A DNA stretch of 39,866 nt from Eubacteriales bacterium (lineage in GTDB: Bacteria; Bacillota; Clostridia; Oscillospirales; JAAYXM01), in NCBI GenBank assembly GCA_045629985.1, contig JAZQSI010000136.1:1-39866 (forward strand), read 5' to 3'. Shown piece after piece: positions 2,292 through 16,448 of the stretch. The first letter of the stretch is position 1, and each line of letters begins with the position of its first letter. The position numbers and the translations under genes were made by a program. The notes beneath the pieces were generated by a model, which did no database searches, was not told the DNA's origin, and was given only the letters and a program-made list of their open reading frames with translations.

Positions 2292-2305
2292 CCACGCAGA
2301 CTTCT

Positions 2306-3316
2306 TTATCTTTTGAAAAACTCTATGATTTCTCTGTCGTATTTCTCGGTGTTGTTTATTCTCAGATGCGAATGCCCGCCCTTGTCAAACCATACAAGCT
2401 TTTTATCTTTTGCGCTGCAACGGTCAAAAAGCTTCTGCGACTTTTCAGGGAGCGAGAAAACGTCTTTTTCACCATAGAGAAAGAGAACGCGTGCATCGGG
2501 TTTTATTTTAGTTATTGCAGATATCGGTTTGTCCTTATAAACATTTGTTCCCGTATGTCGATTTATATGAAGCATAACAAGGTCAAGCACCGGAAAAAGC
2601 GGGCGTTTATTGTATATCATATGCTGTTTGAACGTTTCTCGGAACGATACGAAGCAGCCTTCGGTTACAAATCCACACACATAATCGGGGCAGGATTTAT
2701 CCGTCATTGCAAAAATGCCTGCGGCAGTGCCTATGCAGATACCGTGGTACCACACCTCACGGTTAGAGAAGCGCTCGTGCATAAGCTTTGACCACGCGAT
2801 AACGTCTCTCGATTCTTTCACGCCGATGGTGTTGTACTTTCCACTACTTTTTCCGTGACAGCGGGTGTCGATAACAAGAACGTTGAACCCTGCTTCTTTA
2901 TACGGCGATGCGAAATAGTAAGAATACTTGAGACATTCGCATCTGCCAGGAAGAATGATAACGCATCTGTCTGCACCGAAATCAAAGTACTCGCCAAAGA
3001 GCGAGAAGCCGTCGTTTTCAATCTCGACTTCGGTTACCTTATCCCGATACTTTTCTGCCCATTCAATACCCGCATTCCACATTGCAAGCTGCTCTTCATT
3101 ATCTGGTGCGGAGCAGATGTGCCCCCATTTCTCCGGCGTTTCTCTCACAAGCTGTGAAAAATATACTATTTTTGAAATCGGATATGTGTAAACAAACATG
3201 AAAACGAGACCTCCGAGAAGAAGCCCTGCCAATATATAAATCCAAATCATACCAGATTGTATCCCCTTTCCCCATAAAACCTTTGATATTATAACACATT
3301 TTTCTGCAAATTTCAT
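2306..3316 (-). CDS. Membrane-anchored alpha/beta hydrolase with a G-x-C-x-G nucleophile elbow
   Basis: N-terminal TM segment (IWIYILAGLLLGGLVFMFVY), then an alpha/beta-hydrolase core: ILPGR...DTRCHGKSSG...HGICIGTAAG...GEKD...GGHSH. It is paralogous to the 8971-9936 gene. An alternative start lies at ATG 3250. Confidence 0.8.
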   Translation of the reverse strand: MKFAEKCVIISKVLWGKGIQSGMIWIYILAGLLLGGLVFMFVYTYPISKIVYFSQLVRETPEKWGHICSAPDNEEQLAMWNAGIEWAEKYRDKVTEVEIENDGFSLFGEYFDFGADRCVIILPGRCECLKYSYYFASPYKEAGFNVLVIDTRCHGKSSGKYNTIGVKESRDVIAWSKLMHERFSNREVWYHGICIGTAAGIFAMTDKSCPDYVCGFVTEGCFVSFRETFKQHMIYNKRPLFPVLDLVMLHINRHTGTNVYKDKPISAITKIKPDARVLFLYGEKDVFSLPEKSQKLFDRCSAKDKKLVWFDKGGHSHLRINNTEKYDREIIEFFKR

Positions 3317-3341
3317 CCTTTTATCGAAAAAAATAAATTTG

Positions 3342-3370
3342 TTGAAAATAGTCGCTTTTTATGATATTAT
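3342..3370 (+). promoter_or_regulatory. Putative sigma-A promoter of the fakB-fakB-fakA-plsX operon
   Basis: TTGAAA (3342-3347), 17 nt spacer, TATTAT (3365-3370), about 36 nt upstream of the ATG at 3407. Confidence 0.45.
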
Positions 3371-3406
3371 TAGTGTGTATTATTGTATAGTATCTAGGGG
3401 GATTTT

Positions 3407-4348
3407 ATGGCTGATTTTGTTATTATTCCGGACACCTCGTGCGACCTCGTGCGAGAGCTCCGCGAACGTTTTGGAATTGACGACTATATAAAAGGACTTG
3501 TCTATTTTCCCGACGGTCATGCCGAATATTCCGATATTGACTGGGAGCGTCACGATCCTGAAGAGTTTTTTGAGTCTATGTCCAGCAAAAAGATGATATA
3601 TAAGTCTGCCGCGTGTCCTACCGGCGAGATAATTGATACATTCGAGAGGCATCTTTCAAACGGAAAGGATATTCTTTGCCTTACACTCTCTTCTGCACTT
3701 TCGGGAACATACTCCACCTGCGAGCTTGTTAAGAACGATGTTCTCCCGAAATATCCGGAGCGCAAGATTATCTGCATCGACTCTCTGCGCTATTCTATGC
3801 CGCTCTCAATGCTTGCAATAGAAGCCGCAAAGAAGCGTGAAGAGGGATTTTCTCTTGAAGAAACCGCAGAGTATATAGAAGCGAACAAACACCGTGTGCA
3901 CCAGATTGGTCCAATGGATGATTTGTTCTTCCTCTGCCGCACCGGCAGAATTTCAAACTTCAAGGCGTTTTTCGGCAATCTCGTCGGAATCAATCCGATG
4001 GCTGATTTCAACCGCATAGGGCTTTCCGAAGTTCTCGGCAAGTTCAAAGGTAAAGCAAATGCACTTGATGCCGTGATAAAATACATGAAGGAAATCATAA
4101 TTGAGCCTGAGAAACAGATAATCTTTGTTTCTCACTCAAACCGCCGTGCTGTTGCAGAAAAACTCCGTGATATGATTATAAAAGAATTTAACCCACGTGA
4201 GGTCATCATCAGCCATATAGGTATGTCCTGTGGCTGTTCCGTAGGCCCCGGTCTTTGTGCGGCTTACTGGTGGGGCACGGAAATCAGCGATGGGCTTGTC
4301 AAAGAAAAGGCTATAATGGAAAATATTATTAAAAGTCAAAAGAAATAG
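3407..4348 (+). CDS. DegV-family fatty-acid-binding protein (FakB-like), copy 1
   Basis: N-terminal IIPDTSCDL and the family-wide layout. RBS GGGGGA precedes the start. 313 aa. Confidence 0.9.
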   Translation: MADFVIIPDTSCDLVRELRERFGIDDYIKGLVYFPDGHAEYSDIDWERHDPEEFFESMSSKKMIYKSAACPTGEIIDTFERHLSNGKDILCLTLSSALSGTYSTCELVKNDVLPKYPERKIICIDSLRYSMPLSMLAIEAAKKREEGFSLEETAEYIEANKHRVHQIGPMDDLFFLCRTGRISNFKAFFGNLVGINPMADFNRIGLSEVLGKFKGKANALDAVIKYMKEIIIEPEKQIIFVSHSNRRAVAEKLRDMIIKEFNPREVIISHIGMSCGCSVGPGLCAAYWWGTEISDGLVKEKAIMENIIKSQKK

Positions 4349-4358
4349 GAGACGGGAC

Positions 4359-5246
4359 ATGAAAGAATTTGTAATTTTCGGCGACTCTACCTGTGACTTA
4401 AACACTTCTCTTCGTGAGAAATATGACATAAAATATATAGCAATGAACTTCTCTGTTGATGATACCGAAGACATTGCTTCTCTTGATTGGGACAGTGCGC
4501 GAACAAAAGAGCATTACGACCTTATGCGTAACGGCAAGCGTATCTTTACCACGCAGGTTCCTAAAACTTCATTCTACGAATCATTCAAGAAAGTCCTTGA
4601 CGAAGGCAAGGCTGTTCTCTATATTTCTTGTTCTTCAGCTCTTTCAGCATCCGTAAACACTGCACGTGTCGTTGCCGAAGAGTTGAAATCAGAATATGCT
4701 GATGCTGAGATTTACTGCGTCGATTCTCTCATAAGCTCCCTCGGTCAAGGGTATCTTCTCATCCAGGCATCTATCAAAAGAGCCGAAGGTCTCTCTGCGG
4801 AAGAGTGTGCAAAGTACATCGAAAGCATCCGCCTTAAGGTAAACCAGTTCGGCACTGTCGATTCTATGGAATATCTCCGCCGTGCGGGTCGCATCAAGGC
4901 TTCAAAGGCATTTTTTGGCAATCTCTTCGGTGTAAAACCGATTATTATCTCCGACATTAAGGGTCAGAACTATGCCTGCAAGAAGGTCAAGGGCGCGGCA
5001 AACGCCCGCGCAACAATTGCAGACCTTGCAATTGAAGCTGCAGACGGGGTGTATGACACTCTCATGATTTCTCATGCTGACTGTGAGGAGAGCGCAATCC
5101 TTCTTCGCGATGAAATCTTAAAGCGCGCAGAATTTCGTGAAGTCATCTTTGGTTACATTGGTCCGATAGTCGGTGCATCCGTCGGTCCCGGCACCGTTAT
5201 CGCATATACGTTTGGCAAAGAAGTTACTATTGAGGGGAATGAATAA
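4359..5246 (+). CDS. DegV-family fatty-acid-binding protein (FakB-like), copy 2
   Basis: IFGDSTCDL N-terminus and ...GPGTVIAY at the C-terminus. It starts 10 nt after copy 1. 295 aa. Confidence 0.9.
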   Translation: MKEFVIFGDSTCDLNTSLREKYDIKYIAMNFSVDDTEDIASLDWDSARTKEHYDLMRNGKRIFTTQVPKTSFYESFKKVLDEGKAVLYISCSSALSASVNTARVVAEELKSEYADAEIYCVDSLISSLGQGYLLIQASIKRAEGLSAEECAKYIESIRLKVNQFGTVDSMEYLRRAGRIKASKAFFGNLFGVKPIIISDIKGQNYACKKVKGAANARATIADLAIEAADGVYDTLMISHADCEESAILLRDEILKRAEFREVIFGYIGPIVGASVGPGTVIAYTFGKEVTIEGNE

Positions 5247-5249
5247 GCC

Positions 5250-6899
5250 ATGCAGCAGTATATAGACGGCAAGGTTTTGAATTACATATTTACCGTCGGC
5301 TATCGCAACCTCAAGCGGAGAATGGACTTTATAAACGATCTCAACGTCTTCCCCGTCCCCGATGGCGATACCGGTACAAATATGGTGCACACCTTTGGCG
5401 GTGGCCTTGCTTCCGTAACTGTACAGAAAAATATCGGCAACTATATGAAGGAGCTTTCCCGCGCCGTTCTTCTCAGCGCGCGCGGAAATTCAGGAGTTAT
5501 TTTCTCCCAGTTTTTCCACGGCCTCTGCCGCGGCTTTGAAGAAAAAGAAAGCATTTCTTTTTCCGATATGGCACGTGCTTTTGAGTATGCACGCGAAGAT
5601 GCCTATAAATCGATTATGACTCCCACCGAGGGTACGATTCTCACCGTAATCCGCGAATCGGCAGAGTTTCTTCAGGAAAACGCTGATAAATATACTGATT
5701 TTAAATCCGGCCTCGCGGATCTCATCTCATGTATGAACGCCTCTCTTGCGAAAACACCTGAACTTCTCCCTGTTCTCAAGGAAGCGGGCGTTGTTGACAG
5801 CGGTGGCGCAGGCCTTGTTTGCTTTTTTGAAGGTATGCACACCTATTTCTGCGGCACTACGCTTGAAGACATTGAAGATAACGACTTTACTCCGAAGACG
5901 GTAAACACTTCCGATTTCGGTCCCGACAGCGTTATGGAGTATGGCTACTGCACAGAATTTATCCTCCAGCTTATGAACGCAAAGACTGATATTGCCTCTT
6001 TCTCTACCGATGAGTTTGTAAAACCGCTTAATGCGCTCGGCGACTCTATCGTTGCAGTTGCATCAGACAGCATCGTGAAGATTCATATCCACACATTTGA
6101 ACCCGAAAAGGTTCTTGAATATGCAAGACGTTTCGGCGAATTTGTCACGCTCAAGATTGAGAATATGTCAGTCCAGCACAGTGAGATACAGTCAAATACT
6201 TCAGCAAACGCAAGGGCAGAAGAGAAAGAGAAAGTAAAATACGCTATCGTTGCGGTTGCATCCGGCGAAGGTATCGTTGACTATTTCTACAACATCGGCG
6301 CAAACGCTGTTATCGACGGTGGCCAGACAAACAACCCGTCAGTCTCCGACTTTCTCGCCGCATTCGACCGTTTTGAAGCAGAGCACATCGTCGTGCTCCC
6401 GAACAACTCTAACATCATCCTCACCGCAAATCAGGCGGCGGAGATATATAAAGAAGCTTCCGTTCACGTTATCCCGACAAAGTCCATAACGGAAGGCTAC
6501 AGCGCTCTTTCCATGATGAATCTCTGGTGTGATACAGTGGATGAGCTTATCGAAGATATGAGTTCCGGTCTTTCAAATGTCACCTCGGCATACGTCACAA
6601 CCGCTACGCGTACTACCAATATGAACGGTGTCGATATTGAAAAAGACAACTATATAGGACTCCGTGGCAAGGAGATTCTCCTCTGCAATTCTGACAGATT
6701 CTACACGGTAACAAACCTTATAAAAGCAATTATGGAAGAGGACGAAAAAGCAGTTGCAATCTTCTTCTGCGGCAAGTCTGTTTCCGAAGAAGAAACGGAC
6801 GCACTCCGAGCCTTTATGGAAAACGAGTATCCCCTTGTTGACTTTGGCTTTGTTGACGGCAAGCAGGATGTTTATGACTACATCATTTCTTTGGAATAA
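5250..6899 (+). CDS. fakA: DAK2-domain protein YloV/FakA (fatty acid kinase ATP-binding subunit)
   Basis: DhaL/DAK2 signature FPVPDGDTGTNM. The 549-aa two-domain layout is typical of YloV/FakA. It starts 3 nt after the second DegV gene. Confidence 0.9.
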   Translation: MQQYIDGKVLNYIFTVGYRNLKRRMDFINDLNVFPVPDGDTGTNMVHTFGGGLASVTVQKNIGNYMKELSRAVLLSARGNSGVIFSQFFHGLCRGFEEKESISFSDMARAFEYAREDAYKSIMTPTEGTILTVIRESAEFLQENADKYTDFKSGLADLISCMNASLAKTPELLPVLKEAGVVDSGGAGLVCFFEGMHTYFCGTTLEDIEDNDFTPKTVNTSDFGPDSVMEYGYCTEFILQLMNAKTDIASFSTDEFVKPLNALGDSIVAVASDSIVKIHIHTFEPEKVLEYARRFGEFVTLKIENMSVQHSEIQSNTSANARAEEKEKVKYAIVAVASGEGIVDYFYNIGANAVIDGGQTNNPSVSDFLAAFDRFEAEHIVVLPNNSNIILTANQAAEIYKEASVHVIPTKSITEGYSALSMMNLWCDTVDELIEDMSSGLSNVTSAYVTTATRTTNMNGVDIEKDNYIGLRGKEILLCNSDRFYTVTNLIKAIMEEDEKAVAIFFCGKSVSEEETDALRAFMENEYPLVDFGFVDGKQDVYDYIISLE

Positions 6900-6910
6900 G
6901 GTGTCTTTCT

Positions 6911-7891
6911 ATGAAGAAAATCGTTATTGATATATATGGTGCAGATGCAGGCCCTGAAGTAGTTCTGCGCGGTGCCGCACGGGCAATCGGCGAATGTGGC
7001 ATATTCCCGGTTTTCGTAGGAGAAAAGCTTCTTGTTGACCGCGAAATGGCAGCAAAAGGGATTTTCCCTGAACAATACGAGGTCATTGATACCTGTGATT
7101 ATATCACGAATGATGAACCTCCCACTTGCATCTTCGGAGGTCGCGACAACTCTTCTGCCGCGCTTGCATTCGGCAGACTTAAGACAGACGATGACTGCAT
7201 TGCGATGATTTCCGCAGGGAGCACGGGCGCTCTTCTCGTCGGCTCTATCTGCCGCCTGGGTCTTATTCCGCCAATTAAATTCCCGTCGCTTTGCAGTGCT
7301 CTTCCGTGCGCAGGAGAAAAGCTTCTCTGCCTTGTTGACTGTGGTGCAATTATTGACTGCACAGCAAACGATCTTGTTCGTTTTGCAGTAATGGGAAACG
7401 TTCTTTCAAAATGCCATTGCGGAGTTGAAAATCCCCGTGTCGGGCTTATGTCCGTCGGCCGCGAGGATTCAAAGGGCAACGCCCTTACGCTTGAAGCTTT
7501 TAAGAAACTCTCTGAGCTTGATATTAACTTTATCGGCAACCTTGAGGGCAGCGATATGGTCTCCGGCTATGCTGACGTTATCGTTACCGACGGTTTTTCC
7601 GGAAACCTTCTCCTTAAGAGCACTGAAGCCGCAGGAAAAAAAGCTATGCAGATAGTCAACGACCTCGGTATTGACAATCCCGAGCTTGCAGGCAAAATCA
7701 GCGCAAAACTCTTTGAAACATTTGATTTTAATTCACGCGGCGGTGCAACATTCCTCGGCACGAAGAAAACCGTTGTAAAGATGCACGGTTTTGCAAATGA
7801 GGACACAACTTTTGCCTGCATTATGCAGATACTTCGACTTGAAAAGTCAGGCTTCTCGCAGAAAATTGCAGAAGCACTTAAAAATTTATAA
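6911..7891 (+). CDS. plsX: Phosphate acyltransferase PlsX
   Basis: Blocks ISAGSTGAL, PRVGLMSVGREDSKGN, INFIGNLEG, VIVTDGFSGN and VKMHG align, from memory, with B. subtilis PlsX. Confidence 0.9.
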   Translation: MKKIVIDIYGADAGPEVVLRGAARAIGECGIFPVFVGEKLLVDREMAAKGIFPEQYEVIDTCDYITNDEPPTCIFGGRDNSSAALAFGRLKTDDDCIAMISAGSTGALLVGSICRLGLIPPIKFPSLCSALPCAGEKLLCLVDCGAIIDCTANDLVRFAVMGNVLSKCHCGVENPRVGLMSVGREDSKGNALTLEAFKKLSELDINFIGNLEGSDMVSGYADVIVTDGFSGNLLLKSTEAAGKKAMQIVNDLGIDNPELAGKISAKLFETFDFNSRGGATFLGTKKTVVKMHGFANEDTTFACIMQILRLEKSGFSQKIAEALKNL

Positions 7892-7896
7892 AGAAT

Positions 7897-7930
7897 AAAG
7901 ACAAACATTTATACATGTTTGTCTTTGTGT
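7897..7930. terminator. Bidirectional intrinsic terminator between plsX (+) and the GT2 gene (-)
   Basis: AAAGACAAACAT / ATGTTTGTCTTT 12-bp stem (7897-7926) with flanking A and T tracts. Confidence 0.6.
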
Positions 7931-7935
7931 TTGTT

Positions 7936-8958
7936 TTATTCTTTTGTAATCGAAGCTATAAATATCAGCTGATGCAGGAAATACCTGAGTGGCAGACAGA
8001 TAATGTAAACCATATTGAAGTTTAAAAAAAGCGGAATGCCCGGTATAAGCAGAACAACCAATACACACATCAGTGTATATACGAAATAGTATATTACCGC
8101 ATATCCTATCGTTGTAAGATACTCAATTGAAGCTTCCTTTTTGAAAACGACATATCTGTTGAAGATAATGCACATTAAAAGCGATATTGCACCTATGGAA
8201 GGCACTACAACCGGTATGTAATGAGGCTCTGTTAAAAACGATGCAATAAGCAACAGTATTTCTGCCGCAATAAACGAGAAGACCGTTCCTCTCGCGAGCG
8301 AGAAAAGACTTTTGTATATCCTTACCGTGTCCGCAACAGGACTAAAATGGCTTGATTCGTTATTTCCAATGTAAATCGCATCAATTGGAAGCGTTGTTAT
8401 CTTGAGCCCTTTCTTTGCGGCATAATAGAGCACGTTCATCTCATAATCATAGTTATTCTTTTCAACCTCTATGAGCCAGTCAAGATTGCTTCTCGCAAAT
8501 CCGCGAAGCCCCGACTGATTATCGGAAAGGTAACGGTTTGTGAGCAGTGTGTATATAACTTTTGAAAAATCATTGCCAATCCTTGAACGGAGCGGTATCT
8601 TTCCCTTTCGCTCGCGCACACTCAAAACAAACTTATTTCCACGGTGCAAGAGTTCTCGGATGCGGACAGCGTCTTTCGGAAGGTGCTGACCGTCGGCATC
8701 GCAGGTTATGAAGTTCTCGCATTCGGGAAGATTGTCCCTTATATAGCGCATACCCGCCTTGAGCGCAGCTCCCTTGCCGCAGTTCTTCGGGAGTGTCACA
8801 ATATCTGCAAGGTTGCGTACGGAATCAAAAATCCCCTTGAACTTCTCCCCGCTTCCGTCATCAACAACTACAATCTTGAATTCATTCTCCCAAAGCTCAC
8901 GCACAAGCGATACGAGCTTTTCGTCCGGCTCATACGCCGGTATCAGAATCACGTCCAT
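7936..8958 (-). CDS. Family 2 glycosyltransferase with a C-terminal 4-TM (GtrA-like) membrane domain
   Basis: IPAYEP...VVVDDGSG...CDADGQH GT-A motifs, followed by about 110 hydrophobic residues that contain an NRYVVFK motif. Confidence 0.8.
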   Translation of the reverse strand: MDVILIPAYEPDEKLVSLVRELWENEFKIVVVDDGSGEKFKGIFDSVRNLADIVTLPKNCGKGAALKAGMRYIRDNLPECENFITCDADGQHLPKDAVRIRELLHRGNKFVLSVRERKGKIPLRSRIGNDFSKVIYTLLTNRYLSDNQSGLRGFARSNLDWLIEVEKNNYDYEMNVLYYAAKKGLKITTLPIDAIYIGNNESSHFSPVADTVRIYKSLFSLARGTVFSFIAAEILLLIASFLTEPHYIPVVVPSIGAISLLMCIIFNRYVVFKKEASIEYLTTIGYAVIYYFVYTLMCVLVVLLIPGIPLFLNFNMVYIICLPLRYFLHQLIFIASITKE

Positions 8959-8970
8959 TGAAAACCCTCT

Positions 8971-9936
8971 TTATTTCCCCATTTTTCTATCCAGAAAATC
9001 ATTTATTATCTCAATAAGTTCATCGTCCGCCGTGCCGTCGTCATCAAACAGAAGATTTGTATGGCCTGCGTTGTCGGGATGCGACCGCATTATGAACTCA
9101 ACATTATCGCCCGTTAAGTTCTCTCTGTGAGATATAATCGAAAACTTATCTACAGGTATCAGATCGTCATCCTCACCGTGTATCAGAAGCACGGGCGTAT
9201 CTGTTTTTGCAATCGCCTTATCCGCGCGGAGATTTACCGTCTCGCTTCCGAAAAGCATCGTCTGGTACAGCCAGAGGAAGCCGTAATTTACATATGCAAG
9301 CGGTCCTATCTTTGATACCGACGCGCTCATTATTCCGTCCATCGCGCTGTTCACTCCGCTTACCGATACAACGGCTGAAATGTCGTAATCGTACGCAAGC
9401 GCACAACACGCGGCATACCCACCGCGCGAATGCCCGAGAAGAACAATGTCCTTATGCGAAAAATTATCCTTGCTTTTAAGATAATCAAGCGTTGCCCTTA
9501 TATCACAGAGTTCCTGCGGGAATCCTATACTTGAATCCCCCTCGGACTTACAGCAGCCCGTTGAGTCAAACGCGAACACCGACCACCCGCACAAAAGCAA
9601 CTCGTGTATCTGCCAGATGTAGCTATCCGAGCACGCATTGTACCCGGGAACGATTACAATAAGCGAGTCTTTCGCATTTTCGCCGCGGCACTTATACAAA
9701 TATCCGGAGAGCATATTTTCTCCCGACGGGTATGTCACCGTTTCGCGGAATGCAACAGTTTCCGAAAGCCCCTCGGGATATTCCGACAAAGTGCAGTCAT
9801 AGCGCACGAAAATACTGTCATATATGATTTTTGTAGCAAGAAGAGATACCGTAAAAAAACATAAAATTGTTATAATAATGGCTATCAATACCCTTTTCAG
9901 TTTAGGTTTTTTAGAAAGTACCATTATTATCACCAC
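8971..9936 (-). CDS. Membrane-anchored alpha/beta hydrolase (Ser nucleophile GHSRGG)
   Basis: N-terminal TM segment, then VIVPGY...FDSTGCCKSEG...LLGHSRGG...HGEDDD...AGH. The start is either GTG 9936 or ATG 9924, the latter with a GGTGA RBS. Confidence 0.8.
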   Translation of the reverse strand: MVIIMVLSKKPKLKRVLIAIIITILCFFTVSLLATKIIYDSIFVRYDCTLSEYPEGLSETVAFRETVTYPSGENMLSGYLYKCRGENAKDSLIVIVPGYNACSDSYIWQIHELLLCGWSVFAFDSTGCCKSEGDSSIGFPQELCDIRATLDYLKSKDNFSHKDIVLLGHSRGGYAACCALAYDYDISAVVSVSGVNSAMDGIMSASVSKIGPLAYVNYGFLWLYQTMLFGSETVNLRADKAIAKTDTPVLLIHGEDDDLIPVDKFSIISHRENLTGDNVEFIMRSHPDNAGHTNLLFDDDGTADDELIEIINDFLDRKMGK

Positions 9937-9969
9937 TTTATATAATTTTTAACCAAAGGAGCGCTTGAG

Positions 9970-10944
9970 ATGAAGTTCGTTCCAACTTACAAGCTTGATA
10001 TTATCCCTGACGCTGAATTTAACACACGCATTTCCGATGTGGAAAAGAAGCTTGCTGAATGCAGAACTACGGGAAACTTCAACGCTTTTGACAACACAAA
10101 AATATATTATGAGTTCTTCTTAAGCGAGGGAAACCGCGCTTCAATCGTTATTGTTCACGGTCTAAGCGAGTTTACGAAAAAGTTTTATGAATTCATCTAC
10201 TATATGCTCAATCAGGGCTATAACCTGTTTGTTTACGACCAACGCTGTCATGGTCTTTCCGGAAGGCTTACCAACCACCGCGACCTTCTGCACGTTGACC
10301 GCTTCGATGATTACGTACGCGATCTCAACCAGTTCATGGACGAAGTCGTAGCTCCAAAGACGGACAAGCCCATCTATCTGTATGCCCATTCCATGGGTTG
10401 TGCGGTTGCCGCGCTGTATCTCGCACGATACCGCGAAAAAATAAAAAAAGCCATTCTTTCCGCACCGATGTTCATGCCCGTTGTGGATATGGTGCCTCAG
10501 CAGGTTGCTCGCCACGGCCTCGCCGTCGCAAAGGCTATCCTCGGCAAAAAAAGAAAGTTCTCCCTGACAAAAGAATTCAATCCCGATGTGTCCTACAGAG
10601 CAAGCCACGGCACAAGCCGTGTACGCTTTGAATATAATATGAACCTGCGCCGTGAAAATCCTTTCTACCAGTCAACTCCCATGAGCCTCGGCTGGGTATA
10701 TAACTCCCTGACCGTCGGAGGCGAGATTTTCAAGCGCAAGATTATTGACAATATCAACGCAAAGATTCTCATAATCTCTGCAGAAAACGACACAATGGTC
10801 GAAAACGAGCCCCAGCATCTGTTCGCAAAGCGATGCAAAAATTGCGAGCTCTTTGAAATAAAAGGCGAAACCCACGCACTGCTCGCAAGCAACGAGAAAA
10901 CGCTTGGTGAGATGATGCAACGCATCCTCTCTTTCTATGATTAA
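9970..10944 (+). CDS. Alpha/beta hydrolase, lysophospholipase/monoacylglycerol-lipase-like
   Basis: VIVHGLSEF...YDQRCHGLSG...LYAHSMGC...ENDTMV...GETHAL. RBS AAAGGAG precedes the start. 324 aa. Confidence 0.85.
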   Translation: MKFVPTYKLDIIPDAEFNTRISDVEKKLAECRTTGNFNAFDNTKIYYEFFLSEGNRASIVIVHGLSEFTKKFYEFIYYMLNQGYNLFVYDQRCHGLSGRLTNHRDLLHVDRFDDYVRDLNQFMDEVVAPKTDKPIYLYAHSMGCAVAALYLARYREKIKKAILSAPMFMPVVDMVPQQVARHGLAVAKAILGKKRKFSLTKEFNPDVSYRASHGTSRVRFEYNMNLRRENPFYQSTPMSLGWVYNSLTVGGEIFKRKIIDNINAKILIISAENDTMVENEPQHLFAKRCKNCELFEIKGETHALLASNEKTLGEMMQRILSFYD

Positions 10945-11561
10945 TCTTGATTTTCTTTTTCGGCGATTCGCTTCGCCTCATCTGCGGCGGCATGAATCAA
11001 CGCCACAAGCGCTCTGAACACTCTCACGGTTATTACCGTTTCGAATTCGGCTGAGCCTTTTTCCTTTGAATAATCGCAGACGATGTTTATCTCCTCGCCC
11101 TTCTCGCAAACTTTCATATTGGAATGCACAAGCCCTATAATCGGCCACACAATTGCGTGGCAAGCTCCATAGCCTATCGCAGTTTTTGCCGCGTCGTTTT
11201 CGGCGCATACGATATTGAGCTTTAAAACCTTGACCTTGCAATGCGAAAGCAACTGCAAAAGTCTTTTCAGGAGCGATATTATAAGAGAGAGACTTTCGCT
11301 TATTGTTGAAGATAAGCCGCCGGACTTTATGCTGTCTGCAAGTTTATCTTTTTCAACACGTGAAAGTCCCGAAGTTTCTTTAAGCATCTTTACAACGGGG
11401 TTTGAAGGGTCGGGATTTTCGCCGTATGTTTTCCCCAGAAACTTATATCTGAAAATAAGCTCCCCCGTCGGGTCAGTTTTCAGAATAACATCCACAGGGA
11501 GCATCAGTATAACGGCAATAAGAAGTATTATAAACGCTGCTATACCTGCAAGAATCCACAT
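10941..11561 (-). CDS. N-terminally anchored protein, DUF2953-like
   Basis: One TM segment (ILAGIAAFIILLIAVILML) followed by LPVDVILKTD...FRYKFLGKTYG. The family call is from memory and of low certainty. Last gene of the lipid operon. Confidence 0.6.
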   Translation of the reverse strand: MWILAGIAAFIILLIAVILMLPVDVILKTDPTGELIFRYKFLGKTYGENPDPSNPVVKMLKETSGLSRVEKDKLADSIKSGGLSSTISESLSLIISLLKRLLQLLSHCKVKVLKLNIVCAENDAAKTAIGYGACHAIVWPIIGLVHSNMKVCEKGEEINIVCDYSKEKGSAEFETVITVRVFRALVALIHAAADEAKRIAEKENQD

Positions 11562-11580
11562 TCCTTTTCACCCCCTGGTT

Positions 11581-11988
11581 TTATTTTCTGCCGAGTTTTT
11601 TTCGGATTTTTTCGCGAACCTCATCCAAAAACGCTGAGCTGCTTTCTCCAAAAGCACAGCTATTTACAAAGTGCTCACAGTTGTTGTGAAGAATATCATA
11701 TCCGCTCTCGCCGATTCGCTCGCGAGCGCATCTGATAATCTCCTCACGTGAGCGCATTTTTTTTGCTTCTTCCCGGCTCGGATGTGCCACCTCAACATCT
11801 CCTCCCGCGAGGAATGTGTAGATGTCAGACGTGAGAACGTGAATCTCATTTGCAGGTCTTCCCGGGTCATCAGGAAGACCGAACTGAATAACCTCATCCT
11901 CGCTTACAAAAACGCCGTAGTGGCAATAGAAGCTCACCTTTGTTCGCACTATGTCGCCACGTTTCGGCGACACGCTTCTCCACTCCAT
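11581..11988 (-). CDS. LRAT/PLAAT (H-rev107, NlpC/P60 superfamily) domain protein, 135 aa
   Basis: Conserved His in CHYGVFV and the signature NNCEHF, which holds the catalytic Cys. Its start overlaps the upstream stop by 1 nt (TGATG). Confidence 0.8.
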   Translation of the reverse strand: MEWRSVSPKRGDIVRTKVSFYCHYGVFVSEDEVIQFGLPDDPGRPANEIHVLTSDIYTFLAGGDVEVAHPSREEAKKMRSREEIIRCARERIGESGYDILHNNCEHFVNSCAFGESSSAFLDEVREKIRKKLGRK

Positions 11989-12227
11989 CAGCCGACCTTC
12001 TTCTCAATTGTGCGAATGACATCGCCGACGGTCCTGATCTCAAGAAAATCGTCATTACAGAACTTTATGTCAAACTCATCCTCAAGCGCCATCGCCATGT
12101 ACAGAAGGCCAACGGAATTTATGCCGATATCTTCCCTGAGGGAAGATTCTGGTGTTATCCCATCAACATTTATATCACCGTCAAAAACAGCTGTGCAGAC
12201 TTCAACAAGTCTTTCAAAAATGTCCAT
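11988..12227 (-). CDS. Stand-alone acyl/peptidyl carrier protein (79 aa)
   Basis: Four-helix carrier pattern with the phosphopantetheine-site motif DIGINSVGLL (Ser38). It starts 2 nt after the upstream stop. Confidence 0.8.
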   Translation of the reverse strand: MDIFERLVEVCTAVFDGDINVDGITPESSLREDIGINSVGLLYMAMALEDEFDIKFCNDDFLEIRTVGDVIRTIEKKVG

Positions 12228-12229
12228 CT

Positions 12230-13513
12230 TTATTTCTCCAATGCGTTTTCATCATTACCCGCCGCCTTGCATCTTTTAAGTTCTGAGACAAGCGCGTCGG
12301 TAATGTTTTTTATATCGGCAAAACTCGGAACTTTCCTCGTACTGTAATCGGCAGGATTAACGGGATTTCCGATTATAACCGTCTGCCTCTCATACCAACG
12401 TTTCCTTCCGACAATGTGCATCGGAACAATCGGCACACCTGCACGTATTGCCATAAGGACAGCTCCTGATTTTATATCATTTACGTCATTGTCCTTTTGT
12501 ATTCCGCCCTGCGGGAAGACAGTAAGAAGATACCCCTCGCGAAGCTTTGTAATCGCTCGGTCTATTCCTTCAACATCCGCGGCATTACGATCAATCCTTA
12601 TCGCGCCGACACCCTTGAGAAAAAATGACCGAACACGTCCGCCCATAACGATTTCAGCAACCAGATAGTGCATTCGTCTGTACCAGAACGTGAGCCCCGC
12701 TATGAACGGGTCGAGAAAAGACGTATGGTTTGCCGCAATAATTGCGCCACCTTTTATTTTCACTTTGTATTTTTCACCTTCGGGCGTAAGTCTCTTGATT
12801 CGCAATACCGGCATAAGGGCCGACATAACAAACCTCGACATATCCATAGGCAATCGACGGATGTCAAAAAGCCTGTGTTGCTGTTTTCTGCAAATAAGCT
12901 CTTTCTCAAGCGAGTAAACCTTATCGTGCAAAATATCCGTAAGATATTTCAGCTGTTCTTCTGTAGATATGCCGTCCTTCATATAATCCGTAAGGTGAAA
13001 CGGCTCACCCACGCACACGCCCGTGCGTTTGAATATACCGTATCTTCCGTCTGTATATACGGGAACAATCGGCGCATCGCAATTCATCGCAATGAACGCC
13101 GTGCTCGTCGTAAACGGGAAAGGTTTTCCTCCGACAGGAAGACGTGCTTCGGGAAAAACTCCCACGGTCCCGCCGGCATCAAGAATCTCGAGTGCTTCGC
13201 TGACAAAGGAAAAATCCCGGTCATCACGGTTTACTCTCACACCGCCGAGGGAATTCAAGAGAAACGAAAAGAACTTTCCCTTATTATAAAGCACCTCTGC
13301 CATAAGAAAACGCACTGTGCGGAAAGGAAAAACCAGAAGATACAGAACGAAATCAAGAAGCGATTTATGATTTGAAACTATGATGCACGATTTCGGCAAT
13401 CTTCTTTTTGCCCTGAACACACGAGGCTTAAAAAACAGCCACGCGGGCAAACCTCCTGTTATCCTCGCGAAAGCGAGGAACAGGTCAATAAACCATTTTT
13501 TCTTCATAATCAA
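12230..13513 (-). CDS. Tandem double PlsC/LPLAT-type acyltransferase (two complete acyltransferase domains)
   Basis: Domain 1: NHKSLLD, GGVRVNR, FPEARL, PIVPV. Domain 2: NHTSFLD, GAIRIDR, FPQGG, PIVPM. TTG start at 13513 overlaps the upstream stop; an alternative ATG lies at 13507. Confidence 0.85.
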   Translation of the reverse strand: MIMKKKWFIDLFLAFARITGGLPAWLFFKPRVFRAKRRLPKSCIIVSNHKSLLDFVLYLLVFPFRTVRFLMAEVLYNKGKFFSFLLNSLGGVRVNRDDRDFSFVSEALEILDAGGTVGVFPEARLPVGGKPFPFTTSTAFIAMNCDAPIVPVYTDGRYGIFKRTGVCVGEPFHLTDYMKDGISTEEQLKYLTDILHDKVYSLEKELICRKQQHRLFDIRRLPMDMSRFVMSALMPVLRIKRLTPEGEKYKVKIKGGAIIAANHTSFLDPFIAGLTFWYRRMHYLVAEIVMGGRVRSFFLKGVGAIRIDRNAADVEGIDRAITKLREGYLLTVFPQGGIQKDNDVNDIKSGAVLMAIRAGVPIVPMHIVGRKRWYERQTVIIGNPVNPADYSTRKVPSFADIKNITDALVSELKRCKAAGNDENALEK

Positions 13514-15420
13514 ATATGCTTTTCCAGATATTCGCAGATGTCGCGCACCGTATAACAGAACTTGTCATTCTGCTTATAGTCCGACACGGAAAATTTTTCC
13601 GACAGACGCGAGAGAATGGAAAAATACTGTATGCTCGTTGCACCGAGGTCGTAGAAAATGTGAGTATCGACTCCGATATCCTCGGCAGAAATTCCGAGAA
13701 TCTCCGCGATAACCACGCGCACGTCTCTCGCAAGGCGTGACTCACCGCCATCCTTTGCTTCGCCTTTCATATCCGCGAATGAAATAAGCTTAACTTCTCC
13801 GTTTTCAATTTTTCTTATAAGCTGTGCACGACTGACTTTTATAGCGGTCGGTGGGCACAGAGCATCGGTAGTGAAATAGAACTTCTTTATAGAAGTCGTA
13901 CGCGGAAGAGTGTCGTTTATTGCATAAACAGCCTCGCGAATGGCGCGAAGCTTCTCGTCTGAAACAAACTCGCTGACTTCTGCGACAAGCGAAAGCTCAT
14001 CGCCGTCCTCGCCGCGAAGCCCGAGCACTGATAATGCTTTTGCATCTTTGATGTCAAGCAGTTTCTCAATCATATCAGGGTTGATGTTCTCGCCGTTTTC
14101 ACCGAGCACGATATCGCTCTCGCGGCCGAGGATAAAGTAGTTCCCCTCACTCTCAACCATCTTGTCGCCCGTGTTAAACCATCCGTCAAAGACCTGTTCT
14201 TTCCCATTAACGAGTTTTCTTGTGCAGAGAGAACTTCCCCTTACGAGGAGAACTCCGTCATCGGAGATTTTGTACTCAACCGAGTCAAACGGGCGCCCAA
14301 TAGAATTCTCGCATCGATGCTTCATCTTTCTGCGAAGCTCAACGGAGGTAATTCCGATTTCGCTCATGCCGTATCCGTTGTATGTGTTGTACCCGATGCC
14401 GTTAAGAAGCTCGAGAGCGGAATCTTTCACATAGCTTCCGCCGTTTATACAGAACATAACCGACTCTCCGAAAATTTCTCTCGTGACCTTTCCCATAATC
14501 TTCTTTGAAAGTTCAGGCCCAAAACTCGGAAACATATTCTGCAAAAATGACGTAAGCTTCATTGCTTTTTGCAATTTTTCATATTCGCCCTTTTCGTTTG
14601 CGGTGGCAATAACGCTCTTTTCGATAGTGTGCCACAAAACAGGAACGGCGAAAATGTGCGTCACGTTATGCTTTCTGCAGGTTTTGAGTATTGTGTCTGC
14701 CGAATAGTTGCGCAAAAATACGATTGTCCGTGCAAAGAATGCAAACCAGAAATATACGGCAAAAAGACCAAATACATGGTAAAACGGCAGAAATGCAAGC
14801 TGTTTGAGTTCACCTTTGTAATGCTTTGCAATTCTCGGCTCAAGCTTAACTATAGTTTCGAAATTCATTATCTGCTCCGAAACCTCGGCACCCGTGTAGA
14901 AACACACTACTTCGTTCATAGAGGTTGCGGAAGAAGAAAATGCAATCTCGTTTTCAAAAACATCGCGCGGAGGAGCTCCTTCACCCACAAGCTCAGAAAC
15001 AGGTATACTCTCGGCATTAAGTTCAGACACGTCTTTACAGACAGTGTATTTTATGCCGAGAGTTTCAAAAATACCGTTTGAGAGCGAGGCCGGGTAGCGC
15101 AAATTCACAAGATACGGTCTATTTCCGCTCATGAGTATTGCCCAGAAAGCAACAATCCACTCGGGACTGTTGTCAAGCTCCAGCGCAATATACGCGTGAG
15201 TTGCGCCTACCTTTTCGTAAAGAGCCGCCGCCGCGCTTTTAATTCTGTTTTCCATCTCGCCGTAGGTTTGTTTTTTTACTCTGAAACCGTCACTCGTCTC
15301 ACAAAGCACGCTGTCTTTCCATGAAAACATGATTTCATAGATATCAGCAAATCGCTTTTCTGACTTCACCAGAGCATCGCGGTTTCTTTTTATAATCTTT
15401 CTGAGTTTTCCGTCCATCAC
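13510..15420 (-). CDS. ANL-superfamily adenylate-forming enzyme fused to a C-terminal carrier domain
   Basis: Motifs YNGYGMSE (A5), FNTGD (A7), GRESDIVLGENGENINP (A8) and LPRTTSIKK (A10 Lys) are present. The C-terminal carrier domain carries DLGATSIQ. The A3 P-loop position reads SSSATSMNE. Confidence 0.85.
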   Translation of the reverse strand: MMDGKLRKIIKRNRDALVKSEKRFADIYEIMFSWKDSVLCETSDGFRVKKQTYGEMENRIKSAAAALYEKVGATHAYIALELDNSPEWIVAFWAILMSGNRPYLVNLRYPASLSNGIFETLGIKYTVCKDVSELNAESIPVSELVGEGAPPRDVFENEIAFSSSATSMNEVVCFYTGAEVSEQIMNFETIVKLEPRIAKHYKGELKQLAFLPFYHVFGLFAVYFWFAFFARTIVFLRNYSADTILKTCRKHNVTHIFAVPVLWHTIEKSVIATANEKGEYEKLQKAMKLTSFLQNMFPSFGPELSKKIMGKVTREIFGESVMFCINGGSYVKDSALELLNGIGYNTYNGYGMSEIGITSVELRRKMKHRCENSIGRPFDSVEYKISDDGVLLVRGSSLCTRKLVNGKEQVFDGWFNTGDKMVESEGNYFILGRESDIVLGENGENINPDMIEKLLDIKDAKALSVLGLRGEDGDELSLVAEVSEFVSDEKLRAIREAVYAINDTLPRTTSIKKFYFTTDALCPPTAIKVSRAQLIRKIENGEVKLISFADMKGEAKDGGESRLARDVRVVIAEILGISAEDIGVDTHIFYDLGATSIQYFSILSRLSEKFSVSDYKQNDKFCYTVRDICEYLEKHI

Positions 15421-15445
15421 AAACCTCGCAAGAAAGTGTTATGTA

Positions 15446-15979
15446 TTAAAGATTGAAGATGAAGTTGAAGAATGCTATTGTGAGATAAAGTGCCGCAATA
15501 CCTGCACCGACAAGACCGAAAATTTTGCCAAGGCGGCTGAAGATAGCAAGTTTGCCGCCGTCATCATTCTTGCTTGAAAGGATGAAACCGACAACTGAAA
15601 GCGGTGCGGCAAAGAACAAGTATCCGATTGCCATTCCAAAAGCAAAATCTTCTCTGCGAAGGTTTGACATAATCTGGCAGAAGGCAATGAAGTGGCTGAG
15701 AAGACCTGTAGCGGACAATGCCATACCTACTATTTTTCCTACGAGATTAGAATTATCTCCAGATGCTGCTACCGGTTCTGCAGGGCTGTAAGCAGGAGCA
15801 GCGGGTTCTGCAACAGGAGCAGCGGGCTCTACAACAGGAGCAACGGGCTCTGCAACGGGCTCTGCAACGGGAGCAACAGGCTCCTCTACAGGCACTGCAT
15901 ACATCATCTTGGTACCGCAGTTACCGCAGAAGTTCATCGGTTCTTCTGATTTTGTGTTACAATTCGGACAAAAATACAT
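15446..15979 (-). CDS. Zinc-ribbon membrane protein with a Pro/Ala/Val/Glu-rich linker
   Basis: MYFCPNCNTK...FCGNCGTK zinc ribbon, an (EPVAPVA)n-like linker, then 3-4 TM segments. I chose the ATG at 15979 because GGAGGGGA lies 5 nt upstream; the track start at 16018 has no RBS. Confidence 0.75.
   Translation of the reverse strand: MYFCPNCNTKSEEPMNFCGNCGTKMMYAVPVEEPVAPVAEPVAEPVAPVVEPAAPVAEPAAPAYSPAEPVAASGDNSNLVGKIVGMALSATGLLSHFIAFCQIMSNLRREDFAFGMAIGYLFFAAPLSVVGFILSSKNDDGGKLAIFSRLGKIFGLVGAGIAALYLTIAFFNFIFNL
15775..15885. repeat. Imperfect in-frame tandem DNA repeats encoding the Pro/Ala-rich linker
   Basis: Reiterated GCAACAGGAGCAGCGGGCTCT / GCAACGGGCTCT units. Confidence 0.6.
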
Positions 15980-16009
15980 TAAAATCCCCTCCAAAATTAT
16001 TATAGAAAA

Positions 16010-16038
16010 ATTATACACTATTTCCTGTCATTTTTCAA
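16010..16038 (-). promoter_or_regulatory. Putative sigma-A promoter of the zinc-ribbon / ANL / LPLAT / ACP / LRAT operon
   Basis: On the minus strand, TTGAAA (16038-16033), 17 nt spacer, TATAAT (16015-16010), about 30 nt upstream of the ATG at 15979. Confidence 0.5.
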
Positions 16039-16118
16039 GCAATTTTTCACTCTCAAAGCCCCAAAAGCACAAGATCTTTGCTCTTATTTCACACCGCGAT
16101 GCATTAAACAAAAAAAGC

Positions 16119-16190
16119 TTCGAGCCCTTCCATATTTAAATACAAAAAAGACATCCGTTGGATGTCTTTTTTGGTCGGAGTGACAGGGCT
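16119..16190. repeat. Direct repeat copy 1: terminator hairpin plus the last 19 nt of tRNA-Pro (orphan 3' fragment)
   Basis: Identical to 16319-16391 except the hairpin loop (GTT versus TTTC). Positions 16172-16190 equal the tRNA 3' end, including the encoded CCA. Confidence 0.85.
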
Positions 16191-16270
16191 TCATATTGCT
16201 CCGCAATCTGCCAACCTCGGCGACCCAAATGCTTCGCATTTCGGTACCCGCCTTCGCTCCTCGCGCCAAG

Positions 16271-16293
16271 AAAACAGTCCCCCGGACTGTTTT
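16271..16293. terminator. Terminator-like hairpin inside the inter-repeat spacer
   Basis: AAAA-CAGTCC-CCC-GGACTG-TTTT. The structure is symmetric, so it could act on either strand. Confidence 0.4.
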
Positions 16294-16318
16294 CCTCTTT
16301 GTCGCGACCTTCTCAAGG

Positions 16319-16391
16319 TTCGAGCCCTTCCATATTTAAATACAAAAAAGACATCCTTTCGGATGTCTTTTTTGGTCGGAGTGACAGGGCT
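16319..16391. repeat. Direct repeat copy 2: covers the real tRNA-Pro 3' end and its terminator
   Basis: See copy 1. The repeat period is 200-201 bp. Confidence 0.85.
16344..16372 (-). terminator. Intrinsic terminator downstream of tRNA-Pro
   Basis: GACATCC-loop-GGATGTC stem flanked by A6 and T6 runs, directly after the encoded CCA. Confidence 0.6.
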
Positions 16392-16448
16392 CGAACCTGC
16401 GGCCTGATGGTCCCAAACCACCCGCGCTACCAGCTGCGCCACACCCCG
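16373..16448 (-). tRNA. tRNA-Pro (anticodon UGG), CCA encoded
   Basis: Manual cloverleaf: acceptor CGGGGTG/CACTCCG, D arm GCGC-AGCTGGTA-GCGC, anticodon arm GGTGG-TTTGGGA-CCATC with G37, T arm GCAGG-TTCGAGC-CCTGT, discriminator A, then CCA. Confidence 0.9.

Follow-up and report, generated by a model that had tools for sequence, protein, structure and literature searches.

Exogenous fatty acid use in Firmicutes has been described as a process run by FakAB and PlsX, and salvage by a synthetase of acyl-acyl carrier protein (ACP) together with a lysophospholipid acyltransferase (LPLAT), the Aas type, has been described for Gram-negative bacteria, Chlamydia and cyanobacteria. In E. coli, LplT and Aas form a lysophospholipid re-acylation system (PMC11416262), and in Chlamydia trachomatis the LPLAT CT775 and the acyl-ACP synthetase AasC (CT776) are encoded by separate adjacent genes (PMC5693948). 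Enterococcus faecalis has a second ACP, AcpB, serving PlsX and exogenous fatty acids (PMC6509188), while ElbD of Myxococcus xanthus is a multidomain ether-lipid enzyme with the arrangement FAR-ACS-ACP-AGPAT, of which FAR-less relatives are found in anaerobes (PMC9131029, citing Lorenzen 2014). The subject of the present work is a cluster of six genes, g1 to g6, on contig JAZQSI010000136.1 of a bacterium of the Eubacteriales (assembly GCA_045629985.1), of which a stretch of 39,866 nt, here called the window, was analysed. A sequence-only reading of this stretch had described the cluster as a carrier-dependent acylation operon that fits no nameable pathway. Our analysis indicates that it is most likely a variant, in gut Clostridia and so far uncharacterised, of acyl-carrier-dependent lipid salvage and re-acylation; no published description of the cluster was found in full-text literature searches.

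The cluster resembles LplT/Aas and the chlamydial pair in that exogenous fatty acids would be activated by an ANL-type adenylating enzyme, held on a carrier and transferred to lysophospholipids by PlsC-family enzymes, independently of fatty acid synthesis. The architecture is different, however. Aas has its acyltransferase (N-terminal) and its ANL domain (C-terminal) in one polypeptide, whereas here they are encoded by separate genes, an ANL enzyme fused to a carrier protein domain (ANL-CP) coming before the acyltransferases, of which there are two paralogues, not one, either separate or fused to each other. The cluster also adds a free ACP to the fused carrier, an LRAT-type enzyme and, in relatives, a phosphopantetheinyl transferase (PPTase) of the Sfp type; its ANL enzyme is unlike Aas in sequence, missing the NCBIfam Aas cut-offs by far, and its hosts are Gram-positive-type Clostridia. 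With the Firmicute route through FakA/FakB, PlsX and PlsC (PMC6509188, PMC10146087) it shares two FakB, FakA and PlsX, whose genes adjoin the cluster and in some relatives seemingly lie in the same operon, but the known route has no ANL enzyme, carrier fusion, paired PlsC paralogues or LRAT enzyme. AcpB provides a precedent for a second, atypical ACP serving PlsX (PMC6509188); g4, the free ACP of the cluster, was not identified as an AcpB orthologue. As in ElbD, an adenylating domain would load a fatty acid onto a carrier in cis and be coupled to an acyltransferase of the PlsC/AGPAT type, but the cluster has no reductase domain and no elbA/B/C/E genes, its two acyltransferases are separate polypeptides from the loading enzyme, and its context is one of Fak/PlsX and lipases where ElbD has ether-lipid genes.

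On balance we think it probable that the genes encode a split, carrier-tethered Aas-like module that would re-acylate glycerolipids with scavenged fatty acids and would be coupled to Fak/PlsX. A scan of one genome per species, made with an alignment of g3 homologues, gave 59 loci with two-domain relatives (31-70% identity), the remaining 21 loci of the scan being generic single-domain PlsC genes. According to the database records the 59 loci belong to Acutalibacteraceae, Oscillospiraceae, other Eubacteriales, Lachnospiraceae, Erysipelotrichaceae/Faecalibacillus and metagenome-assembled genomes (MAGs) of Bacilli, largely from animal gut samples. Mapping of the loci by tblastn and clustering of open reading frames (ORFs) showed that in 57 of the 59 the acyltransferase(s) are directly preceded by ANL-CP and, likewise in 57, directly followed by a small ACP. 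LRAT was present in 44, several of the absences coinciding with contig ends. In 30 loci the acyltransferases are encoded by two genes that abut or overlap, and in 18 by a fused gene. The conserved unit is ANL-CP, PlsC-a, PlsC-b, ACP and usually LRAT, and the conservation of this core is far beyond chance. The co-occurrence in related genomes that the sequence-only reading had proposed as a check is therefore strong, but it does not extend to all six genes. The DUF2953 gene (g6) occurs in 14 of the 59 loci, all close relatives, and homologues of the zinc-ribbon membrane protein (g1) occur in 28 of 55 loci, with one to three copies each and in variable positions, so that what is conserved is the core and not the operon of six genes.

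In most loci five additional homology clusters recur beside the core. Within 10 kb of it, the 34 long loci (at least 16 kb) contain FakA in 31 cases, FakB in 29, PlsX in 27, a glycosyltransferase of family GT2 in 27 and an alpha/beta hydrolase in 30. By a rough estimate, not a computed one, a single-copy gene would be expected to lie less than 10 kb from any chosen point in far fewer than 1% of cases in a genome of a few Mb. The adjacency of the Fak genes and the core survives at least six different gene orders among these loci. In three loci (L019, L022 and L026) the order FakB-FakA-PlsX-PPTase-ANLCP-2xPlsC-ACP is co-directional with the ORFs abutting or overlapping, and in Erysipelotrichales the Fak/PlsX genes appear to form one co-directional operon with the core. 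The window itself contains the fakB-fakB-fakA-plsX operon. FakA has the domains Dak2, FakA-like_M and FakA-like_C and scores 554 bits on TIGR03599 (cut-off 396), the two DegV-type FakB proteins score 190 and 197 bits on TIGR00762 (cut-off 99.7), and PlsX matches PF02504 (E 4e-66, 223.8 bits against 29.1) while its 218 bits on TIGR00182 are under the cut-off of 243. Neither these four genes at 3407-7891 nor the wider context (1410-10944) had been mentioned in the sequence-only reading, which took the module to be self-contained and independent of fatty acid synthesis. The core in fact sits with FakA/FakB, PlsX and lipases or lysophospholipases, and with these neighbours its general role is far less mysterious than that of an operon that fits no pathway.

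Two further loci, for which independent gene calls and precomputed Pfam assignments were available, show the same association in other forms. L081 (33% identity) reads alpha/beta hydrolase, DegV, FakA, ACPS, AMP-binding, acyltransferase, LRAT, deacetylase, alpha/beta hydrolase, GT2, alpha/beta hydrolase, and L082 reads ANL-CP, 2xPlsC, ANL, ACP, LRAT, MFS. The extra ANL enzyme of L082, like that of L056, has no carrier domain and is encoded directly before the ACP. The L056 enzyme is of the canonical long-chain fatty acid ligase (FadD-like) type (222 bits), the L082 enzyme aligns with it and has a canonical P-loop, and the presence of a FadD-like ligase before the ACP in these relatives points to fatty acids as the substrate. 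Both clusters, and that of L058, also encode a transporter of the MFS_2 family, MelB/GPH-type and so different from LplT, which is a possible importer of lysolipids or fatty acids; none is encoded in the window. The eukaryotic lysolipid symporter Mfsd2a belongs to the same Pfam family. At the other extreme, two Lachnospiraceae loci (L048:9736-10616 and L049:6140-6945) have one PlsC paralogue and the ACP only, with no ANL gene, beside an rlmD-like methyltransferase gene, and look like a reduced version of the module. A fab-operon context for the PlsC-ACP pair of L048 was considered and rejected, its neighbours being unrelated housekeeping genes. The positions of all features are collected in Table 1.

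Table 1 Features of the window and of variant loci. Positions refer to the window unless a locus is named; TM, transmembrane
Feature	Position	Strand	Family or evidence
Sigma-70-type promoter TTGAAA-17-TATAAT, before g1 (predicted)	16010-16038	-	Consensus-scan score 11/12
g1, zinc-ribbon, Pro-rich linker, 3-TM membrane protein, accessory	15446-15979	-	Weak zinc-ribbon Pfam matches
g2, ANL adenylating enzyme with fused carrier domain, 635-636 aa, core gene	13510-15417/15420	-	PF00501 + PF00550
g3, two PlsC/LPLAT domains in one protein, 425 aa, core gene	12230-13507	-	PF01553 twice
g4, core gene for a free ACP of 79 aa, acidic (pI 4.05)	11988-12227	-	PF00550
g5, near-core gene for a soluble cysteine acyl-enzyme of the LRAT/PLAAT type, 135 aa	11581-11988	-	PF04970
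g6, DUF2953 protein with N-terminal TM anchor, 206 aa	10941-11561	-	PF11167
Lysophospholipase-L2-like alpha/beta hydrolase, travels with the cluster	9970-10944	+	Hydrolase_4, E 2e-42
Membrane-anchored alpha/beta hydrolase, candidate lipase/esterase	8971-9936	-	Abhydrolase_1 + Hydrolase_4; one N-terminal TM helix
GT2 glycosyltransferase with C-terminal TM helices, conserved neighbour	7936-8958	-	PF00535; PpgS/AglJ-like
fakB-fakB-fakA-plsX operon	3407-4348, 4359-5246, 5250-6899, 6911-7891	+	DegV x2, FakA and PlsX families
Third alpha/beta hydrolase, membrane-anchored	2306-3316	-	Hydrolase_4; TM helix residues 24-42
Polysaccharide-deacetylase-family protein, recurrent neighbour	1410-2291	-	PF01522 + DUF3473
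LRAT-PPTase fusions	L055:12977-13825; L056:10426-11430; L058:5393-6385; L059:12233-13267		PF04970 + PF01648, confirmed for L056
MFS_2 transporter in variant clusters	L056:5474-7381; L058:441-2354; L082:7668-9035		MelB/GPH-type

The acyltransferase protein g3 matches PF01553 in two stretches (E 5e-40, 136.7 bits against a cut-off of 23), which correspond to paralogue a (residues 1 to ~210) and paralogue b (~215-425). In an alignment of 19 homologues the HX4D motifs N46-H47...D52 and N260-H261...D266 are invariant, as are P119 and F331-P332-G334 of motif III, and the two LPLAT units are, judged by these motifs, catalytically intact. Paralogue a is characterised by VSNHKSLxDF and FPEGRLP and paralogue b by AANHTSFxDPF and FPQGGI, and both the order, a then b, and the distinct motifs are kept whether the pair is fused or split. 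When the g3 profile was compared with the PDB the only match was the PlsC of T. maritima (5KYM, E 2e-21). A Foldseek search with the AF2 model (pLDDT 82) again gave 5KYM as the top match, followed by glycerol-3-phosphate acyltransferases (GPATs; 8E4Y, 1IUQ, 1K30 and 8IA1), PatA and LpxM. Each half matches models for Aas-type 'acyl-[ACP]--phospholipid O-acyltransferase' (E 1e-11 to 1e-14) under their cut-offs. The PlsC equivalog TIGR00530/PRK15018, with a cut-off of 102.95 bits, is missed by the single halves (51.5 and 65.4 bits) and is passed only by the summed two-domain protein (113.7 bits). The Aas equivalogs PRK08043 and PRK08633 are much further away (51.7 bits for g3 against 886, and 92.9 against 1221), and Aas equivalog models are absent from the best 25 NCBIfam matches of g2.

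The adenylating enzyme g2 has a strong match to the AMP-binding family PF00501 (E 2.5e-31, 109.3 bits against a gathering cut-off of 29.9) and a C-terminal PP-binding domain (PF00550, E 1.2e-8, 35.5 bits) with the predicted attachment motif LGATSIQ, in which S596 is invariant. Motifs A5, A7 (NGYGMSEIG) and A8 (WFNTGD...GRESD) and the A10 lysine (AIKVSR) are conserved. The P-loop (residues ~162-171), on the other hand, is degenerate: SSSATSMNEV, invariant in 26 close homologues, contains neither Gly nor Lys and departs from the canonical A3 motif [ST][SG]G[ST][TS]GxPK, to which distant ANL-CP orthologues are nearer (e.g. ATSGTTGRPR in L082). Matches to PDB sequences, by phmmer and by profile, are weak (E 1e-12 to 1e-16) and are to MenE and 4-chlorobenzoate ligase. 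The AF2 model (pLDDT 78.5) matches the McyG A-PCP didomain, MenE, AasS and FadD13 at 15-19% identity; Foldseek returned 637 PDB matches at E <=0.001, the best 50 of which are all ANL or adenylation-domain structures. Neither phmmer, nor the PDB profile, nor AF2 with Foldseek gave anything beyond generic ANL matches from which a substrate or subfamily could be assigned, and g2 by its sequence belongs to an outlying ANL clade, outside every characterised subfamily. The ANL-CP family is large, with 2046 clusters of relatives (90% identity) at E <=1e-10 among the candidates scored. In the source records the core genes have unspecific labels, namely 'AMP-binding protein', '1-acyl-sn-glycerol-3-phosphate acyltransferase' and 'lecithin retinol acyltransferase family protein'.

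The free carrier g4 matches the PP-binding family (PF00550, E 1e-9, 38.9 bits) with a predicted Ser attachment site in the motif GINSVG. It matches the NCBIfam ACP models, in every case under the cut-off. Over helix II its identity to E. coli AcpP is ~33%, and its acidity is similar to that of AcpP. Both carriers would need to be primed by a PPTase, and tblastn of the window with 21 PPTase sequences from relatives gave no match below E 0.1. The relatives themselves have a PPTase of the Sfp type (180-200 aa, PF01648 + PF22624) that is encoded either between the LRAT and DUF2953 genes or directly upstream of ANL-CP, and in seven loci (L001, L003, L004, L006, L015, L023 and L050) an opposite-strand PPTase gene separates the DUF2953 gene from the LRAT gene. 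The 19-nt junction between g5 and g6 looks like the outcome of the loss of such a gene, as a result of which g6 would now appear to be part of the operon.

What is new in the cluster is the LRAT-type enzyme with its link to the PPTase. The protein g5 matches PF04970 (E 1e-20, 74.7 bits against a cut-off of 24.3) and contains the NCEHF motif. It aligns over its full length with the PLAAT2/PLAAT3 structures 4DPZ and 4FA0, the catalytic His (cHYGVF against aHWAIYV) and the Cys (NCEHF against NCEHF) being in register, so that an acyl-Cys intermediate is expected, as in mammalian PLAAT/HRASLS and LRAT enzymes (PF04970; 4DPZ, 4FA0 and 7ZOM). It departs from the Cys-His-His triad of this family (PMC10318531) in that the third residue is a conserved Gln (VIQFG), not His; the His, the Gln and NNCEHF are kept in 44 homologues. 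Unlike the PLAAT enzymes it is bacterial, TM prediction shows no C-terminal membrane anchor of the PLAAT/LRAT kind, and it is encoded in an operon with carriers. Furthermore, L055-L059 encode a single protein of 282-344 aa in which an LRAT domain is joined to a whole PPTase of the Sfp type. Fusion to an enzyme that primes carriers argues that the LRAT-type enzyme acts on acyl-carrier thioesters, and its likely donor or acceptor would be an acyl-phosphopantetheine thioester. To our knowledge such substrates are not known for the PLAAT/LRAT family, and no description of a carrier-linked bacterial LRAT homologue was found in full-text literature searches. The arrangement recalls the pairing of an Sfp-type PPTase with a type II thioesterase in nonribosomal peptide synthetase (NRPS) and polyketide synthase systems, where a carrier-priming enzyme is linked to a small hydrolase, and g5 could similarly clear mis-acylated carriers. 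Type II thioesterases are serine enzymes of the alpha/beta-hydrolase fold, whereas the candidate here is a papain-like cysteine enzyme of the LRAT fold, for which an editing role is putative.

The six minus-strand ORFs were confirmed at 10941-16038. The predicted promoter before g1 is one of three sites with a score of at least 11/12 in 9.5 kb, and two terminator hairpins, behind a tRNA-Pro gene, lie just upstream of it. The junctions are 25 nt between g1 and g2 (28 nt if g2 begins at ATG), TGA-tt-ATG between g2 and g3 (a 2-nt gap, or a 4-nt overlap with a TTG start), 2 nt between g3 and g4, a TGATG overlap between g4 and g5 and 19 nt between g5 and g6; in the gene calls of the database both g2 and g3 begin at the ATG, which makes the proteins 635 and 425 aa long. 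By hydropathy g1 is predicted to have three TM helices and g6 a single N-terminal anchor, with none in g2, g4 and g5. No riboswitch or leader RNA was found before the operon in an Rfam scan, and no fab genes were found in the window. On these points the sequence-only reading was accurate: its genes, coordinates, domains, junctions and promoter were borne out by ORF reading, Pfam and the promoter scan, the Pfam matches and the invariant HX4D motifs agree with its picture of two intact LPLAT units and two carriers in a carrier-dependent activation and transfer module, and it had correctly noted that the window holds neither PPTase nor fab genes. Its view that the substrate cannot be read from the sequence also held, as g2 gave only generic ANL matches, and no characterised pathway matches gene for gene, the NCBIfam equivalog cut-offs for the cluster genes being missed and no paper being found.

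The two accessory membrane proteins are lineage-specific additions, g6 as a passenger. The zinc ribbon of g1 is matched at E ~1e-4, under the gathering score, its predicted TM helices are at residues 83-101, 116-134 and 153-171, and its start is most likely the ATG at 15979 (177 aa), behind a GGAGGGG ribosome-binding site. The DUF2953 match of g6 (PF11167) has E 8e-8 and 32.8 bits against a cut-off of 22, and its TM helix spans residues 3-21. A search of 1.8 billion proteins showed the DUF2953 family to be broad (1027 clusters at 50% identity) and to consist entirely of stand-alone proteins of ~200 aa, which gives no clue to function; the one paper found merely lists the domain.

The region is flanked by recA, polA and pgsA and has uniform GC. 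Upstream of g1 there is a direct repeat of ~77 nt with a spacing of 200 nt (16115-16391), made up of the last 18 nt of tRNA-Pro(UGG), a terminator hairpin and 45 nt downstream. The tRNA gene lies at 16373-16448 on the minus strand and the second copy of the repeat is just upstream of the g1 promoter. The repeat resembles an att-type scar or a small tandem duplication, with nothing between the copies. Origin as a mobile island was rejected: the GC is uniform, the flanks are housekeeping genes and the duplicated 3' end of tRNA-Pro encloses only 200 nt.

On the other side of the operon, the lysophospholipase-L2-like hydrolase gene is convergent with g6, with a 4-nt overlap; its product matches the NCBIfam PldB model (E 2e-42, under the cut-off) and has no TM helix. 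The anchored hydrolase gene at 8971-9936 is conserved beside it in related loci. All three alpha/beta hydrolases fall in one homology cluster and are paralogous, and the two that are N-terminally anchored may be surface-exposed lipases or esterases supplying fatty acids. The deacetylase is found in 13 of 55 loci, 11 of the 34 long loci, and L081. Like GT2, it stays near the Fak/PlsX and ANL-CP/PlsC genes in many rearranged loci, L081 among them, and the pair recalls ArnC/ArnD, which act on polyprenyl-phosphate aminosugar. At the edge of this lipid neighbourhood a DUF6198 protein of 230 aa is encoded at 684-1376. Distant from the cluster, at 34631-35737, is a gene for an Mbeg1-like protein (PF11187, E 9e-82), of a family of predicted lipase-like hydrolases, and at 33164-34474 there is a 436-aa ORF without a Pfam match at E <=1e-5, adjoining genes (30968-33126) for a sensor kinase with HisKA/HATPase domains and a response regulator of the OmpR type.

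In the mechanism that we propose, the hydrolases would free fatty acids from dietary or host lipids and activation would then follow two routes. In one, the ANL enzyme would adenylate the fatty acid and park the thioester on its own fused carrier domain; in the other, FakAB would make the acyl-phosphate and PlsX would move the acyl group to the free ACP, which in some relatives would be loaded instead by the FadD-like ligase encoded directly before it. The two acyltransferase paralogues would each take a carrier-bound acyl group and attach it as an ester to a glycerolipid. The acceptor would in all probability be a lysophospholipid of the 1-acyl or 2-acyl kind, or else glycerol-3-phosphate and then lysophosphatidic acid, so that diacyl membrane lipids would be rebuilt, and the existence of two paralogues would serve two positions or two acceptor classes. 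The LRAT-type enzyme would act through its Cys on acyl-carrier thioesters, either as an editing thioesterase for mis-loaded carriers or as a shuttle between carriers and lipids. The net result would be a split, carrier-tethered counterpart of lysophospholipid re-acylation by Aas/LplT, coupled to the Firmicute Fak/PlsX route. A bolder version, which we consider distinctly unlikely, makes the LRAT-type enzyme a phospholipid:carrier-protein transacylase that would work in either direction without ATP. With the paired PlsC enzymes re-esterifying, this would amount to Lands-type remodelling on private carriers, and the whole locus (Fak/PlsX, ANL-CP, 2xPlsC and ACP), in gut Clostridia poor in fatty acid synthesis, could serve as a full production line for membrane lipids that relies neither on PlsY nor on fatty acid synthesis by the type II system.

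Several observations weigh against the salvage model. Every mechanistic step in it is deduced from genomic context. The gene order shared by related MAGs is partly due to common descent and does not count as wholly independent evidence. The Aas, PlsC and AcpP equivalog cut-offs of NCBIfam are unmatched, the P-loop of g2 is degenerate in this lineage, and g2 falls in no characterised ANL subfamily; as MenE and 4-chlorobenzoate ligase outscore fatty acid enzymes, there is room for a substrate that is not a fatty acid. The acceptor lipid is not readable from sequence, and paralogue b has no basic residue after the EG position of motif III (FPQGGI), so its acceptor may not be a phosphate monoester. 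The window has neither a PPTase nor a lysolipid transporter, and the co-travelling GT2 and deacetylase genes are left unexplained.

Some of the same data could be read as housekeeping phosphatidic acid synthesis, an explanation that overlaps with salvage, differing mainly in acceptor and essentiality, and that we think unlikely without being far-fetched. The PlsC paralogues would then be the main GPAT (replacing PlsY/PlsB) and the lysophosphatidic acid acyltransferase (LPAAT), g4 would be the ACP of PlsX, and the locus with Fak/PlsX would be the core membrane-lipid pathway of organisms that depend strongly on exogenous fatty acids, ANL-CP being a second entry point. The position of plsX behind fakA and not in a fab operon, the absence of any other ACP or PlsC gene from the window, the native chromosomal setting, the inclusion of both an LPAAT (5KYM) and GPATs (8E4Y, 1IUQ, 1K30 and 8IA1) among the closest structures to g3, the AcpP-like acidity of g4 and the single co-directional block of all these genes in Erysipelotrichales loci are consistent with such a role. 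It is harder to reconcile with the scores of g4, under every AcpP/ACP equivalog cut-off, and of each PlsC half alone, under that of AGP_acyltrn, and with L048 and L049, whose single PlsC implies that the acyltransferase pair is dispensable in some lineages. A little less likely again is a dedicated pathway to a special lipid, whether by acylation of a glycolipid made by GT2 and the deacetylase or towards an N-/O-acyl amino lipid, acyl-phosphatidylglycerol or a product of the N-acylphosphatidylethanolamine type. The LRAT-type enzyme could be an N-acyltransferase in this case, since mammalian PLAATs make N-acylphosphatidylethanolamine, and the glycolipid acylators PatA and LpxM are among the fold matches of g3, whose motif III is atypical in paralogue b. 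There is also a resemblance of the carriers, the PPTase and the uncharacterised ANL clade to ElbD (PMC9131029) and the ACP/acyl-ACP-synthetase pair of sphingolipid synthesis (PMC9386255), and GT2 (27 of the 34 long loci) and the deacetylase (11 of 34) co-travel with the core, in L081 too. FakAB/PlsX and lipases, however, are linked to the core more strongly and more widely than GT2 or the deacetylase. GT2 resembles a polyprenyl-phosphate sugar synthase and, being always tail-to-tail with plsX, may simply be syntenic; the operon contains no enzymes that build a head group, and the best sequence and fold matches are O-acyltransferases of the PlsC and Aas types. The unusual di-acylated lipid suggested by the sequence-only reading is close to this explanation and could be formed, but the data do not call for it, as they are accounted for no less well by ordinary (lyso)phospholipid re-acylation.

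That reading had also drawn an analogy with the Dlt pathway, which, like this cluster, has an adenylating enzyme and a partner carrier of ~79 aa. A Dlt-like or NRPS-like system would move an amino or aryl acid, not a fatty acid, to the membrane or a wall polymer, and the best sequence matches of g2 are indeed to aryl-acid ligases (MenE and 4-chlorobenzoate CoA ligase), its top fold match is the McyG didomain and g4 has exactly the length of DltC. However, g2 shares only 15-19% identity with any enzyme for aryl or amino acids, and no MBOAT (DltB), DltD or condensation domain is found in the window, the 59 loci, L081 or L082, nor a DltA-type enzyme in the window or the 59 loci. The acyltransferases are PlsC-type and the context is one of fatty acid salvage, with fatty acid kinase, PlsX, lipases and, before the ACP in relatives, a FadD-like ligase, all of which makes such a system very improbable. 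That the genes are unrelated and lie together by chance or inherited synteny is scarcely credible. Most loci do come from related uncultured Clostridia, and shared gene order is partly inherited, but the adjacency holds from 30% to 90% identity and across Oscillospirales, Lachnospiraceae and Erysipelotrichales/Bacilli through multiple rearrangements. These rearrangements and the fusions (PlsC-PlsC, LRAT-PPTase and ANL-CP), together with overlapping start and stop codons, effectively refute it.

The cluster suggests parallel use of the two routes, FakAB/PlsX and Aas-type salvage, with private carriers, in many uncultured Clostridia and Erysipelotrichales of the gut and rumen. If this is true, it bears on how these bacteria build membranes from dietary and host lipids, on which host lipids are consumed and on the extent to which inhibitors of fatty acid synthesis can be bypassed. 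It would also place a bacterial homologue of LRAT/PLAAT in a functional context for the first time, one that is tied to phosphopantetheinyl carriers.

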